DNA of 64,000 nucleotides from Candidatus Pacearchaeota archaeon. Lineage in GTDB: Archaea > Nanobdellota > Nanobdellia > Pacearchaeales > GW2011-AR1. Where the stretch lies: positions 6,660-70,659 of the forward strand of contig NZCX01000021.1 of NCBI GenBank assembly GCA_002688415.1. The letters are read 5' to 3'. Positions 3,780 through 48,885 of this stretch are shown piece by piece. Both the position numbers and the translations under genes were made by a program. The first letter of the stretch is position 1, and each line of letters starts with the position of its first letter. The notes below the pieces were generated by a model. It saw only the letters and a program-made list of their open reading frames with translations, was not told the origin of the DNA and did not search any database.

Positions 3780-4069
3780 GCCAGGAAAAACTGATCAAAT
3801 TGCTATTGTTCCTAACAATTCTTGGAATACTCTTTATACTAATTTTTGCTCAAAATCAAAAACCAATTGCAGAAGGAATAATTTCTGAAATTAAAACTAC
3901 AGAAAAACAGACAAGAATTACCATAAATGATGAATCAAGAGATATAATACTTTTTGAAAGTTCAAACCTTGATTTAGCAAAAGGACAAGAGATTAGGGTT
4001 TATGGGAGAGAAGATACTTATAGAAATAATAAACAAATCATTGCAGACAGAATAGAGGCTTTGAAATGA
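3776..4069 (+). CDS. Small N-terminally membrane-anchored protein, hypothetical
   Basis: 97 aa with one N-terminal TM. ATGA start/stop overlap with the DRG gene and with the downstream permease. Confidence 0.4.
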   Translation: MSQEKLIKLLLFLTILGILFILIFAQNQKPIAEGIISEIKTTEKQTRITINDESRDIILFESSNLDLAKGQEIRVYGREDTYRNNKQIIADRIEALK

Positions 4070-5262
4070 TTTTTGAAATCATCCTGGCTATTTTGCTAGG
4101 GATACTTTTTGGAACATTCACCGGCCTAATCCCTGGAATCCACACAAATCTAATCGCCTTGATTATGCTAAGCCTTTCGGCAACTGTCCTAATTGGACTA
4201 GATAATCTTGTTTTGGCGATTTTTATCGTTGCAATGGCAACAACGCATTCGTTTCTAGACTTTATTCCCTCAATTTACTTAGGCGCTCCAGATGAGGACA
4301 CGGCTCTATCTGTTCTACCTGGGCATAAATATCTTCTGGGGGGAAAGGCACATGCCGCGGTAAAGCTAACTTTGTTAGGTTCTGCTTCAGCAATTTTTTT
4401 ATTAACAATAGTCCTTCCATTTTTCTTTTTGATAGTACCTCTAACAATAGACTTTATAGAAAGAATGATGGCCTGGCTACTTATTTGGATTTCAATATTT
4501 TTAGTAACTGATACTAAGAATAAAACAAATAGTGTTCTTATTTTTATATTGGCAGGGGTTTTGGGAATTGGAACCCTCGGCCTAAATATGAGTGAACCCC
4601 TCCTGCCATTATTGACGGGATTATTCGGAACATCAACTATAATTTATTCGATTAAGCAAAATACAGTTCCTCCGAAACAGAAAGTCGGAAAATTAGAATT
4701 TAAAAAGAAAGAGCTAATAAAACCACTTATAACAACAATGATTGTCTCTCCAATATGTTCATTCCTACCAGGACTTGGGTCAAGTCAGGCAGCGATAATT
4801 GGGTCAAAGCTTTCAAAAAAAATATCTGAAGATCAGTTTTTAATTCTATTGGGAAGTATTAACACTCTCGTAATAAGCACTTCCTTCTTCACACTATATC
4901 TTATAGGAAAATCAAGAACAGGGGCGGCAAGTGCGATTTCTGAATTAATTACGATAACTCCACAGAACCTTTTATTTATTTCACTTGCAATGATAATAGC
5001 TGCATCAATTTCAATTCCTCTGACCATTCAACTATCAAAAAAGATTGCGAAAAATCTCCATAGAATAAATTATGACAAAACATCTAAAGTAATCTTGTTG
5101 CTTCTTGTGGCTATCACATTTGCTATCTCTGGATTTCTTGGTATTTTTGTTCTTATGGTATCAACATGTCTTGGGCTGCTTTGTACTTTAATAGGAGCAA
5201 GAAAGAGTCTCCTAATGGGCTGCCTTCTGATCCCAACGATATTGTTTTATTTCCCTTTCTAA
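4066..5262 (+). CDS. Polytopic membrane protein, possibly DUF112/TctA-like permease
   Basis: 398 aa, about 10 TM segments, repeated PG/GxG motifs (GLIPGIHTN, LPGLGSSQAAIIGS). Confidence 0.35.
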   Translation: MIFEIILAILLGILFGTFTGLIPGIHTNLIALIMLSLSATVLIGLDNLVLAIFIVAMATTHSFLDFIPSIYLGAPDEDTALSVLPGHKYLLGGKAHAAVKLTLLGSASAIFLLTIVLPFFFLIVPLTIDFIERMMAWLLIWISIFLVTDTKNKTNSVLIFILAGVLGIGTLGLNMSEPLLPLLTGLFGTSTIIYSIKQNTVPPKQKVGKLEFKKKELIKPLITTMIVSPICSFLPGLGSSQAAIIGSKLSKKISEDQFLILLGSINTLVISTSFFTLYLIGKSRTGAASAISELITITPQNLLFISLAMIIAASISIPLTIQLSKKIAKNLHRINYDKTSKVILLLLVAITFAISGFLGIFVLMVSTCLGLLCTLIGARKSLLMGCLLIPTILFYFPF

Positions 5263-5273
5263 AAAACTATTTT

Positions 5274-8200
5274 CTATTTGACTTCTATCTTCTCGGCCTT
5301 AACAACTCTAACGTTATTTGCGACAAATGCATCTCCAAACTCCTTGTTCTCAACAAACTTTCCGCTTAAAAGAACAGCGTCTCCTTCGTCAACCTTTTGC
5401 CCAATTAGGTGTTCCTCAAAATCTCTAGGAAAAACTGTGACCTTGCATTCCCCACTTCTATCTGAAATATCCATAAACGCCATATCTGCACCGCTCTTGG
5501 TTACTATTCTTGTGTACCTTTTCACGACACCAAAGACTTCTGCCTCAACATCGTGCTTAAGATTATTAAGACTTATGGCCCCGTTGCCATAGCTTCCAAA
5601 CGTATCCATTATATGTCCAGAAATGCAAACCCCCAATAACTCCTCTTCCAGACTTAACTTTTCACGAAGAGACATTGGTGGAAGATCAGAATATTCAATT
5701 TTGTTAGCAACTCCTCCGAATAATGTCATCTGCTTTTCTTTACCATCTGTTTTCTGAACATTAATATAAACTTCTAAAAGGCTGGCCCTATTAATCCCCA
5801 ACTCATCAAAACATCCAACCGAGATTAAACTATGGCACACTCTTTTGTTAACTTTGGACAAGTCAACACGATTAACAAAGTCTTGATAGTCTTTATACGG
5901 CCTACTGGCCAAAATGCTCTTTACAGCCTCACCGCCAACATTTTTGATTCCGGACAGACCGACACGGATTACTTTCTTTTTGGATCCATCTGAATTTTCA
6001 ACTTCAACAACACTAAATGACTCTTGGGAAGTATTGATATCTGGTGTCAAAATTTCAATACCTTCCTTTCTAGCTGCTTCCAGGTAAAATGCTAACTTCT
6101 CTGGATTGCCAACGGAAGATGAAATTGTCGCAGCATAAAATTCTACTGGGAAATATTTCTTTAGATAAGCAGTTCTATAACTAATTAATGCGTAGGCTGC
6201 AGCATGACTCTTATTGAAAGAGTATTCTGCGAATTTTACAATATCATCCCACAGCTGAGCAACTTTTTTTGGATCCATACCAGAATGCTCAACGCACCCC
6301 TCTTTAAATTGTGCCTCCATCTTCTCCATAAGATCCATTTTTTTCTTCCCAATGGCTTTTCTTAAAACATCAGAATCACCTCTAGAAAACCCTGCTAACG
6401 CCCTTGATAGCTGCATAACTTGTTCCTGATAAACCATTATGCCATATGTAGGTGCCAAAATCTTTTCTGCGTTCGGATGCGGATAAACAGGTTTGTCTCT
6501 ACCATGCTTTCGGTTCCCATAGACTTCCAAATACTGCATTGGCCCTGGGCGATAAAGAGCAACAATAGCGATAATATCATCAAAACACGTCGGCTGTACA
6601 GACCTCAATGTCTTCTTCATCCCTTCGCTTTCAATTTGAAAAACCCCATTCGTCTCACCGTGACGAAGCATCTTGTAAACATTGTCATCATCCATTGGGA
6701 TACCTTCAAGCCACTTTCCATCCTCCCCGATCGCGTCTAAAACCTTCTTAATAATGTTTAACGTTTCAAGTCCTAAAAAGTCAAATTTAACCAGTCCGTA
6801 TGTTTCTATATCGGGGCCTTCAACCTGAGTAATAACATCACCCTGTCGCCCATAGACAGGAAGATAATGAGAAATAGCCTCCCGCCCCCAAACTACCCCA
6901 CAGGCATGGACCCCCTTATGGCGCACACACCCCTCTAATCTTTTTGCAATATCAAAAATCTGCTCGTGTTTTTTTGCCAACTTCTGCAACTCTTCAGCAT
7001 CGGGAGTAAAATTACCGCCATCGGTTTTAGCATTTAAAGATTTTTCAATCGTTTTCTCACTGACCAATTTTGTAATAGCATTGGCCTCATCAAATGGAAT
7101 TCTAAAAACTCTCATGACATCTTTTAAGACCGCCTTGGCAGACATCGTACCAAACGTACCAATCATAGCAATTTTGTCTTCGCCGTATTTTTTCCGAACA
7201 TAATCAAGGACAATGTCCTTGTCTCCGAAATCTATATCAAAATCTGGCAAACTAATCCTGTCGGGATTCAGAAATCTTTCAAAAAGTAACCCCAACTTCA
7301 GAGGATCCAACTGTGTTATTCCTAAGCTATAGGCAACAATAGACCCTGCACCACTACCACGACCAGGGCCGACTTGACAAAACTTTTTAGCAGCCTGAAT
7401 GAAATCCGCAACAATCAAGAAATACGCCTCAAAGCCCATCTTCCCAATAACTCCCAATTCGAAATTCATTCTATCAATCGCCTCTTTATAATTATCTTCA
7501 TCGCCATAAATTCTATCAACACCATCTTTACACCACTTATACAAGTGCTCCTTATGGCTCATGCCATCAGGGGAATCAAAGTGTGGAAAAATCGGATCAC
7601 CCATCTCTAGTTCAACATTACACCTCTTGGCAACCTCCGAAGAAGCTTCAACATACTCTGGATTGCTTGGGAAAAGATTCAGAACCTCCTCCTCGCTCAT
7701 AACATGATACCCCTCTCCATCAAACCGAAAACGATTTGGATCGCTCATGTCTCCATTGGTTTGAATGGAAAGCATAACCTCATGAGCATAAGCATCGTCT
7801 GATTTCAAAAAGTGCGAATCTGTTGTAGCAACAATTTTTACGTCATATTCCTTTGACATTCTTTGATAAAACTCCATTACTTTTTTCTCTTCCGGAATAC
7901 TGTGGTTTTGAACTTCAAAGTAAAAATCCTCCTTTCCAAATATATCTAAATATTCTTCAATTAGCTTTTTTGCTGCTGGCTCGTTTCCTTCAATAACGGA
8001 CTGGGCAATATCATTAGCTATGCAAGCACTCATGCAAATCAGGCCCTTGGAATATTTTCTCAAAAGAGCCTTATCTACTCTGGGACGATAATAAAACCCT
8101 TCATTATTAGAAATAGAAACCAATTTTATAAGATTCTTATATCCCTCTAGGTCCTTTGCTAACAAGATAAGATGGAAATCTCTTTTGGTTCTCACTCTAG

Positions 8201-8438
8201 ACGTATGATCATCGCAGATATATGGTTCAAATCCAAAAATCAATTTAACCCCCTCTTTCTTGGCTAGATTGTACTTCTTTATCATAGCCCCCATGTTTCC
8301 ATGTTCTGTAATGGCAACCGTATCCATCCCGAGTTCTTTAAGCCGTGGGAACAGTTCTTTTATCTTAGTAGCACCATCAAGAAGACTGTATTCTGTGTGT
8401 AAATGCAAATGCGTAAATCCCATAAATAAAAAGAGCAT
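5274..8438 (-). CDS. dnaE: Bacterial-type DNA polymerase III alpha subunit (DnaE, family C), compact form
   Basis: N-terminal PHP domain (HLHLHTEYSLLDGA, ITEHGNMGA). Palm motifs with the catalytic Asp pair (LPDFDIDFGDKD) and third Asp (GLVKFDFLGLETL). GPGRGSGAGSIVAYSLGIT thumb motif, HhH and C-terminal OB fold. 1054 aa with no tau-binding tail. Confidence 0.85.
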   Translation of the reverse strand: MLFLFMGFTHLHLHTEYSLLDGATKIKELFPRLKELGMDTVAITEHGNMGAMIKKYNLAKKEGVKLIFGFEPYICDDHTSRVRTKRDFHLILLAKDLEGYKNLIKLVSISNNEGFYYRPRVDKALLRKYSKGLICMSACIANDIAQSVIEGNEPAAKKLIEEYLDIFGKEDFYFEVQNHSIPEEKKVMEFYQRMSKEYDVKIVATTDSHFLKSDDAYAHEVMLSIQTNGDMSDPNRFRFDGEGYHVMSEEEVLNLFPSNPEYVEASSEVAKRCNVELEMGDPIFPHFDSPDGMSHKEHLYKWCKDGVDRIYGDEDNYKEAIDRMNFELGVIGKMGFEAYFLIVADFIQAAKKFCQVGPGRGSGAGSIVAYSLGITQLDPLKLGLLFERFLNPDRISLPDFDIDFGDKDIVLDYVRKKYGEDKIAMIGTFGTMSAKAVLKDVMRVFRIPFDEANAITKLVSEKTIEKSLNAKTDGGNFTPDAEELQKLAKKHEQIFDIAKRLEGCVRHKGVHACGVVWGREAISHYLPVYGRQGDVITQVEGPDIETYGLVKFDFLGLETLNIIKKVLDAIGEDGKWLEGIPMDDDNVYKMLRHGETNGVFQIESEGMKKTLRSVQPTCFDDIIAIVALYRPGPMQYLEVYGNRKHGRDKPVYPHPNAEKILAPTYGIMVYQEQVMQLSRALAGFSRGDSDVLRKAIGKKKMDLMEKMEAQFKEGCVEHSGMDPKKVAQLWDDIVKFAEYSFNKSHAAAYALISYRTAYLKKYFPVEFYAATISSSVGNPEKLAFYLEAARKEGIEILTPDINTSQESFSVVEVENSDGSKKKVIRVGLSGIKNVGGEAVKSILASRPYKDYQDFVNRVDLSKVNKRVCHSLISVGCFDELGINRASLLEVYINVQKTDGKEKQMTLFGGVANKIEYSDLPPMSLREKLSLEEELLGVCISGHIMDTFGSYGNGAISLNNLKHDVEAEVFGVVKRYTRIVTKSGADMAFMDISDRSGECKVTVFPRDFEEHLIGQKVDEGDAVLLSGKFVENKEFGDAFVANNVRVVKAEKIEVK

Positions 8439-8542
8439 CTTTTGTTTAAATTCATTATGGTGATAAAATATGTAGAATCACTCCAAAGTTGAACATGGGA
8501 TTATAATTAATGAGTTAAAACAAAAGCCTCTATGGCCCGCAC

Positions 8543-11500
8543 CTACCCAACAAACTCATCAAGCTCAACCTGTTTTTCTTCTGTCTCGCCAAAAATAGAC
8601 TCTATGTATTCCCTAGCTAAGTCAATACCCTCTTTTGTATATGGAGGGATATTGTATTTATTCGCCAAATTTGTCGCTAATTCTAAATATTTCTTAATTG
8701 ACCCCTCACTTATTGTGAAAATAATCTTTCCGCCACATGAACATTCTCCAGCCAATGGAGGTCTTCTAAATTTTTTATTACAATTACTACATCTAAATTT
8801 TTGTCTTGAAAACTTACGCAAATTTCCCCTAATATCGCGAATAAAATGTCTTTCTATCATAAGTCTAGCAACATCAACTGTATCTACTGCCCTGATCTTT
8901 TCAACTAACTCCATCTGCTTTTCAACTTTTTCCTTCATGGTTGGAAGAACCTTATACGACCCATTAACAAAGCCTGCGTTGAAATTATCTGTACAATGCG
9001 TAAACCCTGCTCCCACAAAAGGATTTACCCCATTATCTAGTCTAGTTTTAACTGTTTCAATATTGCATTTACTAGAAGAAGCCTCTTGCTCTGCCAATCG
9101 ATAAACACTCAATGGATAACCATTACATGTTTCAAAATTCAAAATTTGGTCATCAACCTCTCCTGCATCAATTCGCGCATTTAAAACAAGGGGAGCATCC
9201 TGCGTACCTCCTCTATGACTTGGCAAAAATTTACGAGAAAAGTTGATCAAAACATCCATAAGCATCATAACTGCTGCTTCATCCCCGTCACAATCTCTCC
9301 TGATTGCAGCATGCATATATGGAGATGCCACAATTCCCTGTACTTCACAAAATCCTATAATTCTACCAATAACCCCCGCGCAATTATGCGGGGCCATACA
9401 CACTATTAATTGGCCAATCAAATCAGACTTATTTTTCAGATTATAATAACGTGGTAGTTTATACAACCTCTCCAATTCCTCATCAATAAATTCTGCGATA
9501 TTAAAGAATACGTCATCAGCCTTCTCGTCGTCAGAAACCGAACAGGATGGAAGGATTATATCATGAGGCCTCAACTCTAAAATCTGTTCTATGCTTGTCA
9601 AAGGATTTCCTTCGATATCATTAATATAACCAAGCTCTTTAAGCTTCTCAAGGCTAACACCTATTTCCTTAGGCTTAAAATGAGTCAGTGGAACCTCTGT
9701 TCCATCATAACGAATTGTACCATCCTTATTTACTGCCAAATTAAACTTGGCACGCAATATTGCCTTTGATAAGTGTTCAAAATCATTGCCTTTGTTGGTT
9801 AGCGCCCTCACCCCTTTAACCAATGGAGGAATTTCATAATCCTTATACCCCAACAGTCCCGTAGCAGAATCAAAATACTTCTTTATTTCAACATTATGTT
9901 TAGTAAATCGATTCCTCCTCTCATGATTTTCGCAAGGAAACTTCATGGTCTCTTTACATTCTATACAATAATAAAACCTCTCCGTCGGTTTTCCACATTG
10001 CTCACATAAAGAATAGATGGTCTCATTTCCACATTCGCATCTATAAGTAGGCCAATTAGACCTTACAAATCCCATAACACAAGCTTCCTGAACGCTTCTT
10101 AGCCTCCCTCCCTGATCAGAAACCGGAAACAATCCGTTTGGGCTCCCTGGCAGCTTACGAAGCTTAGCCTTTTCAGGCCTACCCATCCTAGAACCAATAA
10201 AGCTCCCAGCCTTGTCTTTAATCTCAAAGCGACACAGAGAATTAATTATTTTCAACACCTCCACTGCTTTATTCTTACTTTTAATAATTTTCAAAACTCT
10301 CTCTCCGAATGTTCCTCCAGAATTAGGATCTATGCCTAAATTGAAAAGAAACCCAGAAGAATCCTCTTCTATTATAATGTTGTCAAAAACAACAGAGTGC
10401 TCAACCCCCAGTAACTCTAAGGCTCTTTTGCCTTCCTTAAATTTCTCGCGAACACTTTCGCTCCATGGCAAAATCAATTTTCCACCAGCAACCTTTTCAA
10501 GCACACCATTCTGAAGCCAGTCCATTAACCAATAAAAATCTTCTACTCCAATCTGTGTCCAGTAAAAAATAAATTTTGGATGGATAGGAATTTCATATTT
10601 TTCACTAATTTTCATAGCACATTCAAAATTAACTGGCTTATTAACAATCTCTTCATATTTTTCACCAGACTTAGATAATTTATCTTCTAGCTCAAGTCTC
10701 CACCACTCTTCAACATACCCGGGCTTTAGTAGGTCAAAATTTCTATCAATAACGTCACCAAGAGGAAACAAAATATCCCCAAGATAAATTATTTCATCAA
10801 TATCCTCGTATAGTTTTTTAGCAGTCTCAAAATCCTGCAATTTTTTAACAGAGCCATCCCGAAGCTTAACGATTGGGCCATCAATTGAGTCGCATGAAGT
10901 TATAATACACCCCTTGGTTGGCTTTTCAATTTTTAATTGAGTTCCATTAGACAAAAATCCTCCACTTACTCCCATCGTGGCTGGATGAAGAGAAGTCGCA
11001 CTAAAACCAGAAGTTCGGCCCCTACCGTACCTAAGCCTAAAGCCGCCACTCCTGCCTGGGTGGCCATAAACTGGACGTCCTGCAACCAGATCTTTAATAT
11101 AGGTTGCCACAACCTCCCCCGCTCCTCCTTCTCTCTTTTTGTGCAATTCAAGATAATCATGTAAAAAATCCCAACCAGTACAAACTAAACCATTTTTCTT
11201 CGGGCTACTCAAACGACCAAGTGCTTTTTCCGCCTTCTGGGCCAATCCTTCGCTAAAAATTAAACACATTCCACCTCTAATAAAATTTGTTTCAACTCTT
11301 TCTAGATCCTTATGATTAGAAACCTCTCTTTTGTCCGTTGGGTCACCGTCAATTTGGAAGGGCAATCTTTCTGCTAAAAAAACCATCTCGTCTTCAGTGG
11401 GAAAATATGCTAGATTTGCAACTCTTTCATGATAATCGACATTTTCTGTTACATATCGCCCAACCTCTTCCTCTGTAGGATCATATTTTGCATAACCAAA

Positions 11501-12031
11501 ATGTTCACGCAAATAATCAATTAGCATTAAAACCAAACATGTAGCCGTGGTACCAGCTGAACGAATTGGTCCACTAAATTTAGCGATAAAATAATCTTTT
11601 CCCTCTTTTGTTTTGCCAAGACTAAGCCCCGTATAGCCCTCTGTCGGAGAAGCAACAACCCCCAAGGTCAAATACGAAAATCCAACACGTATTCCACAAT
11701 CAATCGCTTTAAGTTGGTCCTCAAACTTACAAAATTTTTCTTCAGAAATTTCACGCGCAATAGCAAATGCAACAGTGGTATCAAGCCTCCCGTGCTTGTT
11801 TTCAAGTTCTAAAATTCTTTTACTAATCTTGTCAACTGGAATATCTGAATAAATAGTAGATATTAAATTAACCGCTTTTTCTGCCATATTAACCGCTAGA
11901 GGAATTTCAACTTTTCTAGCCGGATCAAATCCTTTGGAACGAGCCATATTGGCAACTTCATATTCTTTAAGAACTGATTTCTCCAGATTAAGAAAATAAC
12001 CCTCTGGATTCCATACGGGGTTATTGCTCAT
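8543..12031 (-). CDS. dp2: DNA polymerase D (PolD) large catalytic subunit DP2
   Basis: 1162 aa. Cys-cluster zinc fingers (CECGNETIYSLCEQCGKP...CIECKE; C-terminal CSNCNKKF...CSCGG) and conserved DP2 blocks. Overlaps DP1 by 4 nt. Confidence 0.9.
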   Translation of the reverse strand: MSNNPVWNPEGYFLNLEKSVLKEYEVANMARSKGFDPARKVEIPLAVNMAEKAVNLISTIYSDIPVDKISKRILELENKHGRLDTTVAFAIAREISEEKFCKFEDQLKAIDCGIRVGFSYLTLGVVASPTEGYTGLSLGKTKEGKDYFIAKFSGPIRSAGTTATCLVLMLIDYLREHFGYAKYDPTEEEVGRYVTENVDYHERVANLAYFPTEDEMVFLAERLPFQIDGDPTDKREVSNHKDLERVETNFIRGGMCLIFSEGLAQKAEKALGRLSSPKKNGLVCTGWDFLHDYLELHKKREGGAGEVVATYIKDLVAGRPVYGHPGRSGGFRLRYGRGRTSGFSATSLHPATMGVSGGFLSNGTQLKIEKPTKGCIITSCDSIDGPIVKLRDGSVKKLQDFETAKKLYEDIDEIIYLGDILFPLGDVIDRNFDLLKPGYVEEWWRLELEDKLSKSGEKYEEIVNKPVNFECAMKISEKYEIPIHPKFIFYWTQIGVEDFYWLMDWLQNGVLEKVAGGKLILPWSESVREKFKEGKRALELLGVEHSVVFDNIIIEEDSSGFLFNLGIDPNSGGTFGERVLKIIKSKNKAVEVLKIINSLCRFEIKDKAGSFIGSRMGRPEKAKLRKLPGSPNGLFPVSDQGGRLRSVQEACVMGFVRSNWPTYRCECGNETIYSLCEQCGKPTERFYYCIECKETMKFPCENHERRNRFTKHNVEIKKYFDSATGLLGYKDYEIPPLVKGVRALTNKGNDFEHLSKAILRAKFNLAVNKDGTIRYDGTEVPLTHFKPKEIGVSLEKLKELGYINDIEGNPLTSIEQILELRPHDIILPSCSVSDDEKADDVFFNIAEFIDEELERLYKLPRYYNLKNKSDLIGQLIVCMAPHNCAGVIGRIIGFCEVQGIVASPYMHAAIRRDCDGDEAAVMMLMDVLINFSRKFLPSHRGGTQDAPLVLNARIDAGEVDDQILNFETCNGYPLSVYRLAEQEASSSKCNIETVKTRLDNGVNPFVGAGFTHCTDNFNAGFVNGSYKVLPTMKEKVEKQMELVEKIRAVDTVDVARLMIERHFIRDIRGNLRKFSRQKFRCSNCNKKFRRPPLAGECSCGGKIIFTISEGSIKKYLELATNLANKYNIPPYTKEGIDLAREYIESIFGETEEKQVELDEFVG

Positions 12032-13629
12032 CCTAGGTCCTCCGAATCGTCCCGATTCTTACTGCCATTCTCTTCCTTAATTCCTTCTTCTGTATTACCA
12101 AAATCCAATATCCTTATTTCTCTTGTTTTGGGATTAAAAATAGGTACTTTACATGGATCTGGATTGTTCCCTGCTTTCTCTTCAAATGGCGTGATAGATT
12201 GCCAACACGATCCTGAAATAAGAAGTATATTATTTACCGTAGAAAACTCTGCTCTATGTTGATCTCCAGTAAACAAAATATCTGGGATATTGTCAATAAC
12301 AAGGCTATCTTCTTCGCATGGTATATAATCTGCAAGACCGTGGAATGGCGCTAAATGACGCCTTTTTAGCATTTCTCTAACAACTTTGGTCGGAGCATCA
12401 TGCTTATATTTTACTCTTATTTCAGGAAGTTCATTTATAAAATAATTTATACTGGCACCGTGATACATCAAAACACTAAATTCGGCTACTTCAACAAGTG
12501 AGGGATTTGGAACTAAGTGTAAATTTTCTAAATCATACAGGCCGGGTGCAAATTTTTTATTAATTATTGGCTGGGGTTCCCCAACCCAAACTGCATCATG
12601 CTGGCCTGGACACATTATAATTTGAACATCTCGCCTAATAAGGCTAAGTAGTTCTTCAAGTTTTTTATACTGCCCGGCAGTGGTTTTAATATTCAAATAT
12701 TTTTCCTGGCCTGGACCATGATTCACGCCATCAACTGCATCTCCTGCAATAAATAAGTATTTAATTTTTTTAGCAAGTTCTTTTTGGTCACCAGAACCCT
12801 CTTCCCCATTTAGCCATTTTATAAATTTTAAAAAATTCTCTTCAAGAAACATCTTGCTCCCGATATGCATATCACTGATGAATGCAATCAAATCCTCTTC
12901 ATTTGAATACTTTTTGCAACCGATTGATGCATCGGGATAAATAACACTATTCGCAAATAAAATATCTCCTCCTCCATTTACATTGATAGAGATAATATCA
13001 TCCTCTAAAATTGATTTACCAACGCTAAAAAGCTCTGTCTTTGAACTGTTAATTAGAACCTTTGATGCTCCAGTTAAATCTTCTACCTCTAAAAGAATAT
13101 TTTTATTTTTTGTTATCTTTTTGTCTAGAACCGCAACAATAATAGTATAATTTCCCTTGCTGTATCCAATTTTTCTAATTGACGTTAAATTCTCCAGATT
13201 TTTTTCCTCTAAAATATTCCTAATTTTCTCGTATCTACTCTTAAAATGACGAGTAAACTCCCTTACTGTAATTTTTCTCTTAGTAAAAGCTGGAGAAGAC
13301 AATACATTAACATTTTTTACTTTGGGTTTTAACATTGTGTTATTAACAAAGGCTTCATCACCCAAGGGTGCAATCTCATTATAGAGAATTTTTGAGAGAA
13401 TTTTTGAAACTGAATTTTTATTATTAGACTTTAACAGGTTGGTCCTAATTTCATCGATATTTTTAATGAAAATATTTTTATTTAATATTTTATTACTTAA
13501 TCCTGAATTAGAAATCGCCTTTACTAATTTCAAAATATTTTCATCCGAAAGATGATTCATCAGGTCACGAAATTCTAAATCTAGTAAAATTCCATTTCTC
13601 ATACATTCTTTTAATAAAATATCAACCAT
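12028..13629 (-). CDS. dp1: DNA polymerase D small (exonuclease) subunit DP1
   Basis: 533 aa. Calcineurin-like phosphoesterase motifs (DMHIGS, GDAVDG, GQHD, GDQHRA). Translationally coupled to DP2. Confidence 0.85.
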   Translation of the reverse strand: MVDILLKECMRNGILLDLEFRDLMNHLSDENILKLVKAISNSGLSNKILNKNIFIKNIDEIRTNLLKSNNKNSVSKILSKILYNEIAPLGDEAFVNNTMLKPKVKNVNVLSSPAFTKRKITVREFTRHFKSRYEKIRNILEEKNLENLTSIRKIGYSKGNYTIIVAVLDKKITKNKNILLEVEDLTGASKVLINSSKTELFSVGKSILEDDIISINVNGGGDILFANSVIYPDASIGCKKYSNEEDLIAFISDMHIGSKMFLEENFLKFIKWLNGEEGSGDQKELAKKIKYLFIAGDAVDGVNHGPGQEKYLNIKTTAGQYKKLEELLSLIRRDVQIIMCPGQHDAVWVGEPQPIINKKFAPGLYDLENLHLVPNPSLVEVAEFSVLMYHGASINYFINELPEIRVKYKHDAPTKVVREMLKRRHLAPFHGLADYIPCEEDSLVIDNIPDILFTGDQHRAEFSTVNNILLISGSCWQSITPFEEKAGNNPDPCKVPIFNPKTREIRILDFGNTEEGIKEENGSKNRDDSEDLG

Positions 13630-13746: not shown

Positions 13747-14961
13747 TTAAAGACCTAGATTCTCTGCCAACATATCTTCAATTTTTTCAAGAAGCGTGTT
13801 TGATATACTAAGTCTTATTTCTCTGGTTCTACCATGTCGACCCTTGCTAATAACTTTTGCATTAATTATACCAAGCATATCGATATCCGCTAATATATCA
13901 CTAATCCTACGTTGAGTCAGGCTATCGGTTTTTGTTCTTATACAAACATCCTGATAAAGATTATAGACATCACCTGTAAAGAATTTATCTATTTTATGAG
14001 TTTGTTGTTGTCTGGTTAGTTGAACAATTGTATATAATACAAGTTGATGTTGTTTTGGAATAGTTTCCACTATATCCAAGATTTTATCCTTTTCTATTTT
14101 ATGGTTTGCAAGATCTATATAGTCCTCCTCAACCTTCTCTTTAGATTCTCTCTCTGAGAGCTCTCCAGCGACTCTTAATAAATCAAGGGCTCTCCTTGCA
14201 TCACCATGTTCTCTAGCCGCATAAGCGGCGCATTTAGCTGTAACACCAGGGTTGATGACGTTCTCGTGAAAAGCTAACTTGCATCTCTCGTTTAAGATAT
14301 CTTGAAGCTGAATAGCATTATATGGGGGGAAAACAAATTCTTCTTCGCCAAGACTACTTCTAACTCTCGGGTCAACATGGTCTAAAAAGGTTACATCATT
14401 ACTAATTCCGATTAGAGAAATTTGTGCATTCACCAACTCTTGATTTAAACGGGTCATAGAATATAGAAAGGTATCACTCATTTTTTTGATTGCTTGGTCT
14501 ATTTCATCAAAAATAAAGACAATTAATTGCTTTTTACTATCCACAATTTCAATAAATTTTCTCCAAACCTTATCTGTTGGAAGACCTGTTGCAGGAACAC
14601 TTCCTCCTAATTTTTCAATTAATGCTGCCAAAATTCTATATTCGGTATCGGCCACTTTTCTAAGTTTACAATTTATATACTCAAATCTAAGATCTACCTC
14701 TAACTGTTCTGCTTTTTTACTTAATTCATCTTTTACATACAAAACACTCAATGTTTTACCTGTTCCTGTTTTTCCATAAACAAACAAATTACTAGGACGC
14801 TCTTCCCTTAAGCTGGATGCTAATATCCCTGCAATAGACTTAATTTGTTCATCTCTGTGAGGAATACTTTCTGGCGTGTATCGAGCTTGCAAAACAGACT
14901 TATCCTTAAAAACACTATTGTTAACAGCACTCTCAAAAATTTCATTCAACTCAACTACCAT
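13747..14961 (-). CDS. cdc6: Orc1/Cdc6 replication initiator
   Basis: 404 aa. Walker A GKTGTGKT, Walker B IFDEID and a C-terminal winged helix. Sits immediately beside an ORB-containing AT-rich region. Confidence 0.9.
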   Translation of the reverse strand: MVVELNEIFESAVNNSVFKDKSVLQARYTPESIPHRDEQIKSIAGILASSLREERPSNLFVYGKTGTGKTLSVLYVKDELSKKAEQLEVDLRFEYINCKLRKVADTEYRILAALIEKLGGSVPATGLPTDKVWRKFIEIVDSKKQLIVFIFDEIDQAIKKMSDTFLYSMTRLNQELVNAQISLIGISNDVTFLDHVDPRVRSSLGEEEFVFPPYNAIQLQDILNERCKLAFHENVINPGVTAKCAAYAAREHGDARRALDLLRVAGELSERESKEKVEEDYIDLANHKIEKDKILDIVETIPKQHQLVLYTIVQLTRQQQTHKIDKFFTGDVYNLYQDVCIRTKTDSLTQRRISDILADIDMLGIINAKVISKGRHGRTREIRLSISNTLLEKIEDMLAENLGL

Positions 14962-15027
14962 TTTTATACAAAAAATAAACCCTTAGAGTATTTAAATATT
15001 ACTACATTGGAAGCTATGGTTTCATTG

Positions 15028-15050
15028 TCCTCTATTTCCTATGGAGATTA
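15028..15050 (-). repeat. Inverted ORB-like box
   Basis: Revcomp TAATCTCCATAGGAAATAGAGGA contains TCCAnnGGAAA. It is in inverted orientation to the 15236 box, across the AT-rich tract. Confidence 0.5.
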
Positions 15051-15235
15051 AGTTAATTTTACACCTACACCATTATTTCCTATGCAACTTACCTCGATAA
15101 AACTTAAAAATTTCAAATATTCTTTATATATACTATAATATACTATAATATAATATATATAATATATAATATAAAACTTTATAAATGAAATACTTAAAAT
15201 TTCAAATGGAAAAACACCTATTTCTTTTTAAAAAA

Positions 15236-15257
15236 CCTCCAAAGGAAACAAGGGGGT
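15236..15257 (+). repeat. Origin recognition box (ORB) with G-string
   Basis: CCTCCAAAGGAAACAAGGGGGT matches the archaeal ORB core TCCAnnGGAAAC followed by a G-run. Confidence 0.65.
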
Positions 15258-15371
15258 CAGAGATTACCTCAATAAAACCAACCAATCTAATGAAAATATT
15301 TTCAACATCTCTCGTTAATATATATACCAAATCACACAAACATTTATAAATATCTTCAATCAAATTAACCT

Positions 15372-15626
15372 ATGGATAAAAAACCGTTCAAATCTCTCCT
15401 CGGGAAACAGGTTGTAACAAAAGAAGGTAAAAAACTAGGAATTGTAAAGGATATAACGTTTGAAACAAGAACAGGGGAGTTAATCCATGTTGTGTTAAAG
15501 GATCTTACAACCTATACGGCAAACCTATCGCTGGAAAGAACATCAAACAAAGAGGCATTAGTCCCATATAATTCTGTAATAGCAGTAGGAGATTTTGTAG
15601 TAGTCTCAGAAGAAGACTTATTATAA
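15372..15626 (+). CDS. PRC-barrel domain protein
   Basis: 84 aa. LLGKQVVTKEGKKLGIVKDITFETRTGELIHVVL is a typical PRC-barrel signature. Confidence 0.6.
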   Translation: MDKKPFKSLLGKQVVTKEGKKLGIVKDITFETRTGELIHVVLKDLTTYTANLSLERTSNKEALVPYNSVIAVGDFVVVSEEDLL

Positions 15627-15672
15627 ATTAAAACACAATAAACCTTTTAAACCCTAATAAATAGGAAAAACT

Positions 15673-16083
15673 ATGGAAATACAAATAACCTTAATGAGCT
15701 CAAGATTGACAAAAGTAAGTGGGAATAGAGAAATGGAATTCTCAGGAAAAATCTCAATGAACCAAAATATTAAAATTAAAAGTATGGAAAAATTTAAGCC
15801 AACCAATTCAAAAATTGAAAGCATAAAGGCTGACTATTCCTTTGAAATAGACTACGGAGAACTAGGAAAGGTGGAGATAGAAGGAATTCTTTTTTTAGGA
15901 ACAGACTCTAAGACAACAAAAAAAATATTAGAGGAATATAAAAATAAAAACTTCCAATCAGCAGAACAAATAAAAATTATGAATATGATTATACAAAAAG
16001 CATCCATAAGAGCTTTTGAGATAGAAGAAGAGTTGGGCTTACCAATACATATAAGATTGCCAGAATTAGCCCCAAAACAATAA
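15673..16083 (+). CDS. Hypothetical protein
   Basis: 136-aa ORF, no recognisable motifs. Confidence 0.35.
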   Translation: MEIQITLMSSRLTKVSGNREMEFSGKISMNQNIKIKSMEKFKPTNSKIESIKADYSFEIDYGELGKVEIEGILFLGTDSKTTKKILEEYKNKNFQSAEQIKIMNMIIQKASIRAFEIEEELGLPIHIRLPELAPKQ

Positions 16084-16114
16084 GTTATTTAAACTAACAT
16101 TTCTAAGATCCTTT

Positions 16115-16855
16115 ATGAGAGGAGAAAATCAAAATAAAAACCAGAACTTTCTTTTCAAAAAACCACTCTTAAAGCAAAATCACCGAAGAAAACAGAGGGG
16201 GATGATCCAAAATAGAAAACCATTCCCAGAAAATAATGACCCTTCGACATTAAACATTACTAATGAAAAATTATGGAGCATGAAAAACATACAAATTGCA
16301 CTAGTGGTTGGATTTGTGTTACTTATAGTAGACCTCATTCTGCTATTCTCACTAAACACAGGACTATCAGGATCTCTTATAATAGTTTTAATTAGCGTAG
16401 TATTATACGCAATTGCATTGTACTTTCTTCTCAATCCACCATATCAAAAAACCATAGAGAAAGAAAGGACAAAACAAATAGAAAAACCAACAATCAAAGT
16501 AATCGAGAAGAAGATAGAAAAACCAGTAATAAAAATTATAGAAAAACCAGTCGAAAGGATAAAATACATTGAAAAACCAATAATAAAGAGGGTTTCAGCC
16601 CCAGTAACTATACCAGTTAACAAAAATCCAATGAAGGCATACCCATATGTAGCATCGGTAAAATCAAAAACTATTCACGCTACACATACAACAGCTGGAC
16701 GGATGATTAAGCCAGAAAATAGAGAATTTGCCAAAGACATAAAAGAATTAACAAAAAAAGGATACGCAATAGGGCATCTAAACAATAACCCGAGAAAAAC
16801 TTCCGCGAAGAAAGCAAAAAAGAAAATGACTAAGAAAGCAGCTAGAAAAAAATAA
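16115..16855 (+). CDS. Membrane protein with tandem IEKPxIK repeats and lysine-rich C-terminal tail
   Basis: Two TM helices, then IEKPTIKVIEKKIEKPVIKIIEKPVERIKYIEKPIIK encoded by an approx. 24-nt tandem DNA repeat. C-terminus KKAKKKMTKKAARKK. True start may be an internal Met. Confidence 0.45.
   Translation: MRGENQNKNQNFLFKKPLLKQNHRRKQRGMIQNRKPFPENNDPSTLNITNEKLWSMKNIQIALVVGFVLLIVDLILLFSLNTGLSGSLIIVLISVVLYAIALYFLLNPPYQKTIEKERTKQIEKPTIKVIEKKIEKPVIKIIEKPVERIKYIEKPIIKRVSAPVTIPVNKNPMKAYPYVASVKSKTIHATHTTAGRMIKPENREFAKDIKELTKKGYAIGHLNNNPRKTSAKKAKKKMTKKAARKK
16478..16592 (+). repeat. Approx. 24-nt tandem repeat inside the CDS (atagaaaaaccaNNaataaaNNtt, 4-5 copies)
   Basis: Periodicity visible directly in the sequence; encodes the IEKP repeats. 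Confidence 0.6.
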
Positions 16856-16915
16856 AGGTACAAATTTTAACAACTTTTCCACAACATTTTTAAAACCGAA
16901 TAACTCTAGATCTTT

Positions 16916-17185
16916 ATGCCAAAAATATCAAAACAAAAAATCCAAAAAATCAAAGAGCAAATACTGTTCTATTTATATTCAACATTCCCTAATCAACCAT
17001 TTACGTCAGACATCGCAACAGAGCTTGCAAGGGACGAAGAATTTATAAAAATTCAATTAATAGAGCTAGAAAAGGAAAAACTTATAATAAAAATTAATAG
17101 AAACCCAGAAGGCGTAGTGTATCTCAGGAGGTTAAGGTGGAGAATTTCAAATAAAGTTCATGAAGCATACTCAGAAAACCAATAG
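16916..17185 (+). CDS. Small winged-helix DNA-binding protein
   Basis: 89 aa. ILFYLYSTFPNQPFTSDIATELARDEEFIKIQLIELEKEKLI resembles the C-terminal wHTH of the two neighbouring regulators. Confidence 0.4.
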   Translation: MPKISKQKIQKIKEQILFYLYSTFPNQPFTSDIATELARDEEFIKIQLIELEKEKLIIKINRNPEGVVYLRRLRWRISNKVHEAYSENQ

Positions 17186-17244
17186 CCATATTCAAAAACA
17201 TACATTCTAGAATATATAATATTATAAACTCTTTTTTTGTCAAT

Positions 17245-17907
17245 ATGTTTATGGACCTAATAAAAGAGGCTTTTAGCAGAATCAAGAAAGATATTTATTC
17301 CATCCAGGTAGAACTAGCAACCTTAAGACAAGAAGTACAAAATATTGCTAAAAACCAAGTCCCAACTACACATCAAATAGTTCACCGATCGGAGACCCAA
17401 CAGACAAACAGACAACCCCATCCAACAGACACTCCAACACAAAATATAGCCGCAGAGCCTCTTAAAATACAAAATATACCATTTTCCATAGGAAATGGTG
17501 GGGTTCCAACAGACAAACAAACAGACAAACAAACAGACAAACTGGGAAAAAATAGGTTGTTTCATAAGCAAAACACCTTTGATGAGGCGGAAGAGGTCAG
17601 ACACTCACTTGATAGCTTGAAAGAAGAAATAAGGCGCAAATTCCACTCACTGACGCCACAAGAGATGCTTGTTTTTACAACGATCTATAGCTTTCAAGAC
17701 CAGAACAGGCAGATAACCTATAAATCTATAGCTCAGCATTTAACACTCAGTGAGTCGTCAATAAGAGACTATACCAACCGCCTCATTTTAAAAGAAGTAC
17801 CAATTATAAAAGAAAAGGTTAATAATAAGCAGATTCTGCTCTCAATCTCCCCAAGCTTGCGAAAAAACATATCATTATCGACGATAATTGCATTAAGAGA
17901 TGCTTAA
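17245..17907 (+). CDS. Coiled-coil / TDKQ low-complexity linker / C-terminal wHTH protein (putative transcription regulator)
   Basis: 220 aa. N-terminal heptad-like helix, (QTDK)n linker encoded by (cagacaaacaaa)n, and a C-terminal wHTH-like block (FTTIYSFQDQNRQITYKSIAQHLTLSESSIRDYTNRLILKEV). Confidence 0.5.
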   Translation: MFMDLIKEAFSRIKKDIYSIQVELATLRQEVQNIAKNQVPTTHQIVHRSETQQTNRQPHPTDTPTQNIAAEPLKIQNIPFSIGNGGVPTDKQTDKQTDKLGKNRLFHKQNTFDEAEEVRHSLDSLKEEIRRKFHSLTPQEMLVFTTIYSFQDQNRQITYKSIAQHLTLSESSIRDYTNRLILKEVPIIKEKVNNKQILLSISPSLRKNISLSTIIALRDA

Positions 17908-18170
17908 ACAACAAAATTATTTAACTAACTTATTCGGCTTAACGGCCAACTTTCCTTAGGTCTCTTTTAACCCCAAATCTTACTTATTTGAGCTTGTCTT
18001 TTAGTTTTACCGTCGGTAAAAATTAAACTTAGACACTGGATTGTCAAAAGGCTTTTCTGCAAGCCCGCCAATACTCTCTTTTCTGCCTAAAACAAGAGAA
18101 AAACACCAATATCCACTAATTACACCCATTTGTAAAAATTAAACTTTTTAACCCTCACAATTCTATTTTT

Positions 18171-18782
18171 TTAGTGATTTTTCTCCTTTTTAACTCTCAC
18201 TTTTACGCTTTTAAGCATCTTTTTTTTGTTCTCAGTGCTAATATACAGTCTCTTCTTGCCATTTAGCTCTCGTATTTCTTCAATAATTCCAGGATTCTTC
18301 TGTTTTATATTATTTATTTGTCCACGGATAGTACTTTTGTCCTTTCCAAGAATCATACTAACATCCTCATAGCTTAATTTGTTTTCATTATTGAAAAACA
18401 CATATACTATCGCCCTCTCCATCATCGTCAACTGTTCTAAATTGCCTGTTTGAACAGCTGTTTGGACGCCTGTTTGGACAGGGAGCCTGTTTGTTTGTGT
18501 TTGAACAGCTGTTTGGACAAGCTCCTTGGCAGGAGGGATAATCCCAGGATTTAGAAAAGAAATGCTATTTTTCATCTCATCAACTACCACATTAAGGGCA
18601 ACAATATCAGATCTCAACTTTTCTATGTCTGTTTTATAACTTTCGGATTTCACGTCGATATGTTTAATCCAGTCCCCAACTTTTCCAATATCACCCTTCA
18701 CATTTTCAAAAGAATCTTGAACTTCCTTTCGTAGTTTGTCAACTTTCTTTTTACCACCCAAAAAACCAAACATCTTAATCAA
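18171..18782 (-). CDS. Paralogous coiled-coil / VQT low-complexity linker / wHTH protein
   Basis: 203 aa with the same architecture. Linker QTAVQTQTNRLPVQTGVQTAVQTG is encoded by a CAAACAG-type repeat. wHTH block ERAIVYVFFNNENKLSYEDVSMILGKDKSTIRGQINNI. Confidence 0.5.
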   Translation of the reverse strand: MIKMFGFLGGKKKVDKLRKEVQDSFENVKGDIGKVGDWIKHIDVKSESYKTDIEKLRSDIVALNVVVDEMKNSISFLNPGIIPPAKELVQTAVQTQTNRLPVQTGVQTAVQTGNLEQLTMMERAIVYVFFNNENKLSYEDVSMILGKDKSTIRGQINNIKQKNPGIIEEIRELNGKKRLYISTENKKKMLKSVKVRVKKEKNH

Positions 18783-19057
18783 TAAAACACACCTTTACTT
18801 ATAAACCTTTCTGTCTGTTTGGACAGCAAACAGCACACAAACAGCCGTTTAGCCCACACAAGTGCCTAATTTTATGAAAAAATGATAGAAAAATGATTTA
18901 CCGACGGGAAAAATACTGCCACACAGTGATACAAACACCCATCCAAACACCTGTCCACGCCTGTCCAACACGTGAGGGATAAACAAACATTGTCCGTCCA
19001 AAAGCAGAGAAGGCCAACCTCACAAATATTTATAAACAAACAATACCTAAAAAAGAC

Positions 19058-19638: not shown

Positions 19639-19663
19639 GTTCGCATAATATACATTGTATGAA
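19639..19663. promoter_or_regulatory. dif-like imperfect palindrome (candidate Xer recombination site)
   Basis: TTCGCATAAT-ATACAT-TGTATGAAG. The left arm matches the bacterial dif XerC arm core CGCATAAT exactly, with a 6-bp AT central region and a partially symmetric right arm. A second arm-like copy TATATGCGAACG lies at 19712-19727. Confidence 0.35.
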
Positions 19664-19736: not shown

Positions 19737-20222
19737 GTGATAAAGGAGTGTGACAACTGCAAGCAGGAAAAAGACCATCATGCCAAAGGGCTTTGCTATA
19801 GTTGTTACAAGAAGCTATATTTCAAGCCAAAAATCTTAACCTGCAAGCGATGTAAAAGAAAACTTGCAATACATGCTAAGGGATTATGCGCTGGTTGTTA
19901 CAACTACACATTTCACCAAGACAAAAACAAGGCATATCAACAGCGGAAAAAGAACAAAATTAGCATAAAAACATACCAAAAAACAACTGAAAAGTGTGTA
20001 ATCTGTGGTTTTGACAAGGTAGTGGACATTCATCATCTCGACGCCAACAAGAAGAATAATGCAGAAAGCAACCTAATAGGCCTTTGCCCGAATCACCACA
20101 GGATGATTAACAACTATAAATACAAGTTTGAAGTGTTTGCTGAACTTGCAAAGCTAGGATACAGGCTCCCAATCAGTGAAAAAGTAGATTATCATTCACT
20201 ATCTAGCCAAAAAGCACAATAG
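19737..20222 (+). CDS. Zinc-ribbon repeat protein with C-terminal HNH endonuclease domain
   Basis: Two CxxC...HAKGLC..CY zinc-ribbon repeats, then the HNH motif CVICGFDKVVDIHHLDANKKNNAESNLIGLCPNHHRMI. Confidence 0.7.
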   Translation: MIKECDNCKQEKDHHAKGLCYSCYKKLYFKPKILTCKRCKRKLAIHAKGLCAGCYNYTFHQDKNKAYQQRKKNKISIKTYQKTTEKCVICGFDKVVDIHHLDANKKNNAESNLIGLCPNHHRMINNYKYKFEVFAELAKLGYRLPISEKVDYHSLSSQKAQ

Positions 20223-20662: not shown

Positions 20663-21496
20663 GTGAAGATGGATAAAGGCCAATTTTTAGAGATTATTGA
20701 AACAGAATTGTCAATTTCTAAGCACTCACCATACACAATTAGGAATTACCTAGACGCCAATGCTAAGCTATTAGACTTTATACAAAAGGATCCTGAAAAT
20801 ATAACGTCTGAAGACGTAAAGACCTACATGGTAAAAAACCTCCAAGATTCCAAGGCAAGTTCTGTAATCCTTTTTTTGGCCGCAATCAAGTTTGCTTATA
20901 CCCTAGCTGTCAAGAGAGATATCACAATTTCAATAAAACGTCCAAAAAGGGAAAAAATATTGCCGACAGTTCTATCTAAACGAGAGGTAAAACTTCTCCT
21001 TAATGCGATTCCAAATCAAAAGTCCAAACTAATTCTATCAATAATTTACGCTTGTGGGATGAGGGTGTCTGAATTAACAAACCTAAGGATTAAGGATCTA
21101 AACTTCAATGAAAATATAGGACACATAAAACAATCAAAAGGAAAAAAAGACAGAATTTTCAATATACCCTCATTTTTGGAAGAAGATCTTCAGAGTCAAA
21201 CAAAACGACAAAAAGAACTCGGGATGGAATTCTTGTTTACGGGGCCAAAAGGTAAGCTTTCAACAAGGAACATCCAAAAGATAGTCAAAAAAGCTGCACA
21301 AAAGGCTAATCTCTCAGACGAAGTTCATACACACACTTTGCGTCATTCATTTGCAACACATTTATTAGAAAATGAAGTAGACATTAGAAAAATACAGAAA
21401 CTTTTAGGGCACAGTTCAATATCTACAACCGAAATTTATACACATCTTTCCACGCAGGAGCTAAAAAAGATTAAATCTCCAATAGATAGCTTATAA
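20663..21496 (+). CDS. xerA: Tyrosine site-specific recombinase, XerA/XerC/XerD-like
   Basis: 277 aa. Catalytic box HTLRHSFATHLLENEVDIRKIQKLLGHSSISTTEIYTHL (HxxR...H...Y) and an N-terminal SAM-like core-binding domain. Confidence 0.85.
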   Translation: MKMDKGQFLEIIETELSISKHSPYTIRNYLDANAKLLDFIQKDPENITSEDVKTYMVKNLQDSKASSVILFLAAIKFAYTLAVKRDITISIKRPKREKILPTVLSKREVKLLLNAIPNQKSKLILSIIYACGMRVSELTNLRIKDLNFNENIGHIKQSKGKKDRIFNIPSFLEEDLQSQTKRQKELGMEFLFTGPKGKLSTRNIQKIVKKAAQKANLSDEVHTHTLRHSFATHLLENEVDIRKIQKLLGHSSISTTEIYTHLSTQELKKIKSPIDSL

Positions 21497-48884: not shown

Positions 48885-48885
48885 A

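Follow-up and report, generated by a model that had tools for sequence, protein, structure and literature searches.

A Bacterial-Type DnaE Polymerase Encoded Next to PolD in Pacearchaeota, a Candidate Second Polymerase at an Archaeal Replication Fork

Introduction

In the textbook view, family C replicases occur only in bacteria and PolD, with its large (DP2) and small (DP1) subunits, only in archaea. The archaeal sliding clamp is PCNA and the clamp loader is RFC. In Thermococcales such as Pyrococcus, the PolD genes are part of an origin-proximal island with the order oriC-cdc6-DP1-DP2. Here, we analyzed a stretch of 64,000 nucleotides (nt) from a Candidatus Pacearchaeota archaeon (assembly GCA_002688415.1, contig NZCX01000021.1, positions 6,660 to 70,659 of the forward strand; hereafter, the window), in which genes for Orc1/Cdc6, DP1, and DP2 are followed by dnaE, which encodes a bacterial-type family C polymerase.

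The closest described loci are those of Castelle et al. (2021; PMC8204110), who noted in two Pacearchaeota that DNA polymerase III adjoins both subunits, small and large, of “DNA polymerase II” (PolD), considered horizontal transfer likely, and verified three sequences, described as “highly divergent from bacterial sequences.” Theirs is a short paragraph in which function, active sites, partners, the clamp motif, fusion, and the breadth of conservation are not discussed. Beyond it, no paper on the function of an archaeal DnaE was found in the literature searched, subscription journals being outside its scope. Kazlauskas et al. (2020) reported that Woese- and Pacearchaeota also have a bacterial PolII-like PolB and discussed the inactivation of DP1 in some archaea. 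The window shares gene family, lineage, and arrangement with the loci of Castelle et al. (PMC8204110), and more than 100 such proteins are in databases; the arrangement, called highly unusual in the initial annotation of the window, a reading of its letters alone, is therefore not new. It has been published and appears in public annotation but has been barely explored. As opposed to the “highly divergent” proteins of that report (PMC8204110), the DnaE of the window shares ∼40 to 45% identity with bacterial DnaE1 and scores above the cutoff of the DnaE equivalog model.

Results

The window encodes a full-length family C polymerase

The open reading frame (ORF) call on the window delimited a minus-strand frame of 1,054 codons with an ATG start (5274..8438). 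The true start is probably at 8423 (Met6 of the initial annotation), because homologs begin there (MGF.HLHLH). Pfam, NCBIfam, PDB, and Foldseek agree that the product is a full-length family C DNA polymerase, i.e., the short form of Pol III alpha without a tau-binding tail. Its domains are arranged on the minus strand in the canonical order: PHP (amino acids [aa] 10 to 179, 7902..8411; PF02811, 2.4e-52), palm/NTPase (DNA_pol3_alpha; aa 298 to 556, 6771..7547; PF07733, 6e-79), fingers (aa 559 to 718, 6285..6764; PF17657, 2.3e-58), the duplex-DNA-binding helix-hairpin-helix (HhH) HHH_6 (aa 793 to 887, 5778..6062; PF14579, 2.4e-25), and a C-terminal OB fold (aa 968 to 1033, 5340..5537; PF01336, 29.5 bits versus a cutoff of 27). 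An AlphaFold2 (AF2) model computed with 109 homologs (pLDDT, 89.4; pTM, 0.83) has beta-strands across the OB region (residues 965 to 1046), and Foldseek aligned it with TM scores of 0.79 to 0.83 to 2hpi, 7pu7, and 5fku, the Pol III alpha structures of Thermus, Mycobacterium, and Escherichia coli. A phmmer search of PDB likewise returned Pol III alpha of Thermus aquaticus as the best match (734 bits), along with the proteins of Mycobacterium tuberculosis and E. coli. The NCBIfam DnaE equivalog NF004226 was matched over positions 4 to 1062 of 1146 with 1132.5 bits (cutoff, 1002). Other family C identities were discarded: the error-prone DnaE2/ImuC model NF004225 scored 547.9 bits against a cutoff of 939, with PHP ligands being intact in the window protein, and PolC models remained at 182 bits versus 873 (NF001688) and 168 versus 1043 (TIGR01405), with Foldseek identities to PolC of 17 to 20%.

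The catalytic aspartates are D399 and D401, in PDFDIDF (398 to 404), and D553, in KFDFLGL (551 to 557), and all three are invariant in 115 of 115 aligned homologs, whose identity goes down to 58%. The alignment with T. aquaticus Pol III alpha also revealed the same nine PHP metal ligands in both proteins (H10, H12, D21, H46, E71, H89, C139, D207, and H209 in the window), of which D207 and H209 (7812-7820, minus strand) lie just past the Pfam boundary of the domain; each ligand is invariant in every one of the 115 homologs covering its position. In DnaE1 of the Thermus and Mycobacterium type, the PHP domain confers an intrinsic 3′-5′ proofreading exonuclease. Given the nine intact ligands, the PHP domain of the window DnaE is, by analogy, probably an exonuclease of this kind. 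To judge from these motifs, the ORF encodes a genuine, apparently active family C polymerase. The initial annotation had described it as full length, with PHP, three catalytic Asp residues in the two motifs above, HhH, and OB, and this description was borne out throughout; the family C assignment itself stood in the homology searches against Pfam, NCBIfam, and PDB.

Orc1, DP1, DP2, and DnaE are syntenic across Pacearchaeota

A search of 5.8 billion proteins retrieved more than 120 DnaE homologs with 58 to 100% identity. The named ones are labeled Pacearchaeota, Nanoarchaeota, or “archaeon,” and many are encoded on contigs of 50 to 285 kb. We studied the loci of eleven relatives; seven belong to species-representative genomes, and the remaining four were taken from further assemblies (L009 repeats L008). 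In the window, dnaE is preceded on the minus strand by the genes for the Orc1/Cdc6 initiator (13747..14961; Pfam Cdc6_C, Cdc6_lid, and AAA), DP1 (12028..13629; Pfam), and DP2 (8543..12031; Pfam), the last two overlapping by 4 nt, and it converges with a TctA-family transporter gene (4066..5262, plus strand; Pfam), which also bounds the cluster downstream in related loci. Orc1, DP1, DP2, and DnaE are encoded in this order on one strand in 9 of the 9 distinct loci that reach upstream (L002, L003, L005, L006, L007, L008, L010, L011, and L012). TctA is also the downstream neighbor in L002, L004, L005, L007, L008, and L010, and the context of TctA, TGS GTPase, and diphthamide synthase genes is conserved in loci down to 68% identity. 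Orc1 is 73 to 79% identical in related loci but 59% in L010. In the same genome pairs, identities of DnaE, DP2, and DP1 to the window proteins are 72, 64, and 56% (L002), 74, 59, and 47% (L007), 68, 57, and 43% (L010), and 58, 53, and 40% (L011). By this measure, both PolD subunits are consistently less conserved than DnaE.

Nothing beyond the prior expectation that family C polymerases are bacterial speaks for an assembly chimera or for bacterial contamination joined to an archaeal contig, and we assign this explanation a negligible probability. The junction recurs in NCBI, ENA, JGI, Logan, and Tara assemblies, archaeal genes flank it on both sides, and DP2 and DnaE are fused in frame in L011 and L012. 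An NCBI protein from a Candidatus Pacearchaeota metagenome-assembled genome matches DP1 with 100% identity, as does a Tara Oceans protein the window DnaE. The G+C content at third codon positions (GC3) of dnaE is 0.366, within the range of the other window genes (0.24 to 0.375), in agreement with the native, AT-rich composition proposed in the initial annotation. Conserved synteny and native GC3 together exclude a chimera, contamination, and recent transfer. The chimeric contig that the same annotation had named as a caveat was thus dismissed, and the archaeal setting that it had recognized in DP1 and Orc1/Cdc6 extends to the rest of the window.

The junction between DP2 and dnaE varies and has been lost by fusion in one lineage

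In the window, 104 nt separate the DP2 stop codon from the dnaE ATG (8439..8542, minus strand). Two elements, both consensus matches, are found in this spacer: a weak terminator-like hairpin (8538-8524) with a T-run, immediately behind DP2, and, ∼25 to 30 nt before the ATG, an AT-rich TATA-like element (TTTTAT). In view of these elements, dnaE may be transcribed separately in the window. Of the operon drawn in the initial annotation, the position of dnaE downstream of DP2 on the same strand held; for the window, an operon is a possible rather than a demonstrated arrangement. Scans of the region from 5 to 15.7 kb with bacterial sigma-70 promoter and terminator models, which are unsuited to an archaeon, gave counts at the level of shuffled sequence. 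Among relatives, the distance from DP2 to DnaE is as long as 1,027 nt or as short as 44 nt, falls to 0 nt, gives way to a stop/start overlap in L010, or disappears in a fused ORF; L008 has a small opposite-strand ORF between the two genes.

The fused ORF is found in L011 (10001-16639) and L012 (1438-8061), where a single frame of 2,207 to 2,212 aa encodes DP2, a Lys/Glu-rich linker of ∼90 aa, and a DnaE whose start Met has become Asp (…KRDGFVHLHLH). Only this frame is open, and the catalytic sites of both polymerases are intact. L011 and L012 were recovered from distinct data sets, with 8 single-nucleotide polymorphisms between them in 12.2 kb (99.94% identity in DNA and 99.9% in proteins). 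A 540-aa query spanning the junction was used to look for further fusions; its best 120 matches were all partial single-gene proteins covering at most 47% of the query, and the source protein itself was unlisted, which renders this search uninformative rather than negative. Gene fusion is classical evidence of two proteins acting together. The literature searched, within the scope given above, holds no report of a DP2-DnaE fusion.

These data bear on the main rival explanation, namely, that DnaE is a repair, gap-filling, or damage tolerance polymerase outside the replisome, which fills the role of PolB in PolD-dependent Euryarchaeota and owes its position to history. In its favor, archaea are not known to possess tau or beta, the partners through which bacterial DnaE becomes a replicase. 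The catalytic integrity of DP2, the possible promoter of dnaE, and its variable spacing from DP2 point in the same direction, and other archaea with PolD depend on it as their essential replicase (PMC7101311). However, the NCBIfam scores are those of a replicative DnaE and not of error-prone DnaE2 (548 bits versus 939), the PHP proofreading ligands are invariant, and DnaE is under tighter constraint than DP1 or DP2. Furthermore, the position after DP2 has been kept in nine distinct loci, and one lineage has fused the two proteins. We therefore consider a role outside the replisome possible but rather doubtful.

DnaE retains a clamp-binding-type motif and lacks the tau-binding tail

Between the HhH and OB domains, DnaE carries Q903-M-T-L-F-G908 (5715..5732, minus strand), a short linear sequence motif of the sliding-clamp-binding type. 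Among the 115 homologs, Q, L, and G are invariant and F occurs in 113, within variable flanks. The motif falls in the sole internal segment of the AF2 model with a pLDDT of <50 (residues 899 to 910), and QFDLFG and QLDLFG, the beta-binding motifs of M. tuberculosis DnaE1 and the E. coli chain in 5fku, respectively, align with it exactly. With this conservation and predicted exposure, QMTLFG resembles a selected short linear motif for protein interaction. Binding of a QxxL[FI]-type peptide to PCNA is structurally reasonable, because the internal PCNA-interacting peptide (PIP) of Pyrococcus abyssi DP2, Q1198-L1199-x-L1201-I1202, fills the PCNA pocket in this manner (PMC7101311). DnaE would most likely use QMTLFG to ride archaeal PCNA.

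DnaE stops 21 aa past the OB fold, and NF004226, a profile of 1146 positions, is matched no further than position 1062. DnaE thus has no tau-binding tail, in line with the initial annotation. The top bacterial matches are 1,140 to 1,225 aa long, compared with 1,054 aa for the window protein. No dnaN, dnaX, dnaQ, PCNA, or RFC gene was found in the window ORFs scanned, which were ∼57 of the ∼90 listed and left out most of the ribosomal protein block at 34.6 to 44.2 kb.

PolD has an intact DP2 active site and a variant DP1

Alignment to P. abyssi DP2 showed that the catalytic CDGDE motif of the window DP2 is intact. Its C terminus (8543-8581) reads QVELDEFVG and resembles KKRVISLEEFFS, the cPIP peptide of P. 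abyssi DP2. The peptide KKRVISLEEFFS has a dual function in binding PCNA and primase (PMC7101311). The DP2 proteins of L002, L003, L006, L007, and L010 end soon after a conserved ESIFG(K/E)E, with no cPIP-like tail. Inteins (Pfam Intein_splicing with LAGLIDADG or HNH) interrupt DnaE proteins of the clade (P0060 and P0061), the DP2 gene of L006 (1054-5862), the DP2 fragments P0456, P0460, and P0500, and others; the window copies of dnaE and DP2 are intein-free.

DP1 of the window has variant phosphoesterase motifs, i.e., GQHD where Thermococcus kodakarensis DP1 has GNHD, and GDQH where it has GHVH (GHxH). By analogy with Mre11-type phosphoesterases, these substitutions presumably affect ligands of the second metal. 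GQHD is present in 107 of 120 DP1 homologs, and in nearly all of them the first His is exchanged for D ([GA]DQH). A variant that is itself conserved in ∼90% of the 120 homologs suggests a remodeled rather than a decayed site and weakens the hypothesis of decay. L010, which bears DnaE, has canonical DP1 motifs, whereas DP1 of the fused lineage (L011) has GSRD and GSLH and has lost the catalytic His. As a separate observation, a gene for an HD-domain protein precedes DP1 in L008/L009 (L008:3914-4495) and lies between DP1 and DP2 in L010 (5958-6521); it is absent from the window.

Such alterations could mean that DnaE is now the main replicase and that PolD has been reduced to a scaffold or initiator polymerase, mirroring the replacement of the DP2 catalytic module by B-family enzymes in eukaryotes, which kept an inactivated DP1-like subunit. 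The non-canonical GQHD and [GA]DQH motifs in most of the clade, the catalytic His lost in the fused lineage (GSRD and GSLH), the many DP2 proteins of the clade without a C-terminal PIP peptide, and the stronger conservation of DnaE over PolD would all fit. Nevertheless, the DP2 catalytic motif is intact in both the window and the fusion, the conservation of the DP1 variant suggests an altered but functional site instead of decay, and L010 combines canonical DP1 motifs with DnaE. A takeover of replication by DnaE is thus improbable.

The pacearchaeal dnaE has relatives on virus-like contigs and no recognizable donor

A search of 1.84 billion cluster representatives yielded DnaE relatives at 67 and 59% identity within the pacearchaeal clade, then P0122 and P0123 at 49 and 46%, and finally a plateau of bacterial DnaE1 proteins at 38 to 45%. 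The best bacterial representatives (41 to 45%) belong to Bacillota, Dormibacteraeota, Spirochaetota, Elusimicrobia, and Ozemobacter. With top matches from such mixed phyla, no donor lineage can be named; the donor that the initial annotation had hoped a phylogeny would disclose did not stand out, and the nearest relatives are on virus-like contigs. In a neighbor-joining tree of 160 sequences, the pacearchaeal DnaE clade is monophyletic (100/100), with P0122 and P0123 as its sister group (100/100). These two proteins, the closest relatives outside the clade, are encoded at L013:1983-6164 and L014:10001-14086, and both contain inteins, one with HNH. Dozens of short ORFs, unidirectional and unmatched in Pfam, make up their contigs; PHROGs added just a Mom-like and a D5-like match, and the contigs are likely viral or mobile-element sequences by their gene content. 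DnaE matches in INPHARED are at most 41% identical and reside on unannotated human-gut fragments. In IMG/VR, single-protein queries found no DnaE relatives, and an alignment query found only relatives that are at most 39% identical. A virus-mediated origin of the pacearchaeal dnaE, with transfer in either direction, is plausible. P0140, labeled “Nanoarchaeia,” was set aside; its neighbors are NrdR and NrdD, and its contig appears to be bacterial and mis-binned.

A related explanation is that dnaE is still part of an integrated viral or mobile element, whose replication it serves instead of that of the host. The sister group on contigs of small, unidirectional, unannotated ORFs with Mom-like and D5-like genes would agree with it, as would a cluster with integrase and DnaD-like genes at 15.6 to 21.5 kb, on the other side of Orc1, and the phage-like genes that Castelle et al. 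noted nearby (PMC8204110). However, dnaE is flanked by DP2 and by conserved housekeeping genes (TctA, TGS GTPase, and diphthamide synthase) in loci down to 68% identity, and its composition is native. Moreover, the interval from DP2 to TctA is free of integrase genes, phage genes, and att-like boundaries. We deem this explanation very unlikely.

The cluster adjoins a probable replication origin

The spacer upstream of Orc1 (14962..15672) is a probable replication origin, to judge from its repeats and base composition. It contains 6 ORB-like TCTCCATAGGAAA elements (at most 3 mismatches) in 711 nt, versus 0.5 per kb window-wide; TCTCCATAGGAAA and its variants occur in both orientations, with an enrichment of ∼16-fold over the window average. 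An AT-rich, palindromic stretch of the unwinding type extends over ∼15105-15210. ORB-like elements are also found upstream of Orc1 in L002 to L011. GC skew turns at ∼30 kb following gene orientation and therefore neither supports nor refutes an origin. The oriC adjoining Orc1/Cdc6 in the initial annotation is thus plausible from its repeats and AT-rich stretch, while GC skew is of no help.

Beyond the spacer, a block at 15673-21496 comprises mostly unannotated ORFs and may be an integrated element. It encodes a DnaD-like helix-turn-helix protein (17245..17907), a weak match to a RecA-dependent nuclease (19737..20222), and a tyrosine integrase (20663..21496). In relatives, an integrase gene lies upstream of Orc1 in L011, and weak MobC-like and terminase-like matches lie beyond TctA in L010. 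The content of the window is otherwise archaeal, with RpoD, archaeal ribosomal protein clusters, SecY, aIF-2B, AglB/STT3, diphthamide synthase, and DUF655. ARAGORN predicted a tRNA-Leu(AAG) at 23625-23707 (minus strand) that is below the Rfam tRNA gathering threshold; Rfam reports only a tRNA-Ser at 28269-28349. Ribosomal protein S5 (42154-43065, plus strand) is 303 aa long, and its Pfam S5 domains start at residue 159, after an N-terminal extension of ∼150 aa. A glycosylation cluster at 47865-61715 encodes a GT4-family transferase, AglB/STT3 (899 aa), several GT1/GT2/GT10 enzymes, four SAM methyltransferases, and a radical-SAM protein.

Discussion

We favor, with a probability of roughly 55%, the interpretation that DnaE is a second polymerase, acquired anciently and since fixed, which cooperates with PolD at the replication fork, probably on PCNA. 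An ancestor of Pacearchaeota would have gained dnaE horizontally, and the gene would since have been inherited vertically and fixed in the origin-proximal Orc1/Cdc6-DP1-DP2-DnaE island. From the conserved sites and gene order, we infer an active enzyme, PCNA as its clamp, and a role in chromosome replication. DnaE would act at the fork as a second DNA-synthesizing enzyme whose PHP domain supplies intrinsic 3′-5′ proofreading, as in Thermus and Mycobacterium DnaE1. Its tau-binding tail may have been lost because there is no partner for it in archaea, whereas QMTLFG would have been kept in an exposed flexible loop, most likely to ride PCNA. PolD, for its part, would provide the connection with archaeal initiation, with priming, and with the clamp machinery, and in at least one lineage the predicted joining of DP2 and DnaE in one polypeptide would make this partnership covalent. 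Labor could be divided between the leading and lagging strands, or DnaE could extend primers and hand off, as in the DnaE/PolC pair of Bacillota.

Several points weigh against this interpretation. The catalytic CDGDE of DP2 has been kept, so PolD may be the sole replicase and DnaE an accessory enzyme, and the adjacency of the two could just mark the site of first insertion. From its spacer elements, dnaE may have its own promoter in the window, and the opposite-strand ORF that separates the genes in L008 means that co-transcription is not general. The DP2-DnaE fusion was found in one species-level lineage only. QMTLFG is devoid of the aromatic pair of a canonical PIP box, and the survey for a beta clamp (dnaN), a clamp loader, and epsilon was confined to the 64-kb window rather than genome-wide.

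A bolder proposal, which we put forward tentatively as the less probable one, is that PolD and DnaE constitute one hybrid family D/family C replicase, in which DnaE is tethered to DP2, runs on PCNA, and proofreads with its PHP domain, while the exonuclease site of DP1 has been remodeled or, in the fused lineage, lost. Such an enzyme would define the first cellular replisome mixing polymerases thought to be specific to different domains of life, and a living parallel to the replacement of polymerase modules proposed for the origin of eukaryotic replicases. If the two polymerases indeed share a fork, core replicases would be exchangeable or combinable across domains, the locus would be a natural test of a bacterial clamp-binding peptide retargeted to PCNA, and the lineage would offer a living model for the replacement steps proposed for eukaryotic Pol epsilon, delta, and alpha. 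What is plain is that an archaeal lineage kept PolD and DnaE side by side at the probable origin while DnaE diverged to 58% identity. Several features lead to testable hypotheses beyond the remark of 2021: the fusion, the invariant clamp motif, a DnaE under tighter constraint than PolD, the variant motifs of DP1, and a sister group on virus-like contigs.

Among known enzymes, the window DnaE is reminiscent of the DnaE1 proteins of T. aquaticus and M. tuberculosis, with which it shares the domain order, including the position of the clamp motif before OB, the nine PHP ligands, the three catalytic Asp residues, and the internal QxxLF (35 to 36% identity and TM scores of ∼0.8 to their Pol III alpha). 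Unlike them, the pacearchaeal DnaE has no tau-binding domain, is linked to PolD, and belongs to an archaeal host.

In the Bacillota replisome, PolC is paired with a DnaE of the “DnaE3” type, which extends primers before handing off (Bacillus subtilis). The window similarly places a short, tail-less DnaE beside a different main replicase, and some of its top bacterial matches are from Bacillota (Thermoflavimicrobium and Paenibacillus). However, the partner belongs to family D and is not PolC, and identities of 41 to 45% are no closer than those to other phyla; this likeness is a functional analogy only.

The gene order recalls the Pyrococcus island: Orc1/Cdc6, DP1, and DP2 share a strand and adjoin a probable origin that contains ORB-like repeats. 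It departs from it by the family C gene added after DP2 and by the variant DP1 motifs.

Finally, eukaryotic Pol epsilon carries two polymerase modules in one chain and is accompanied by an inactivated, DP1-like B subunit. The L011/L012 fusion likewise has two polymerase modules per chain, and its DP1 has lost the catalytic His (GSRD). The modules belong to families D and C instead of B and B, and both look active, so that the resemblance is an evolutionary parallel only.

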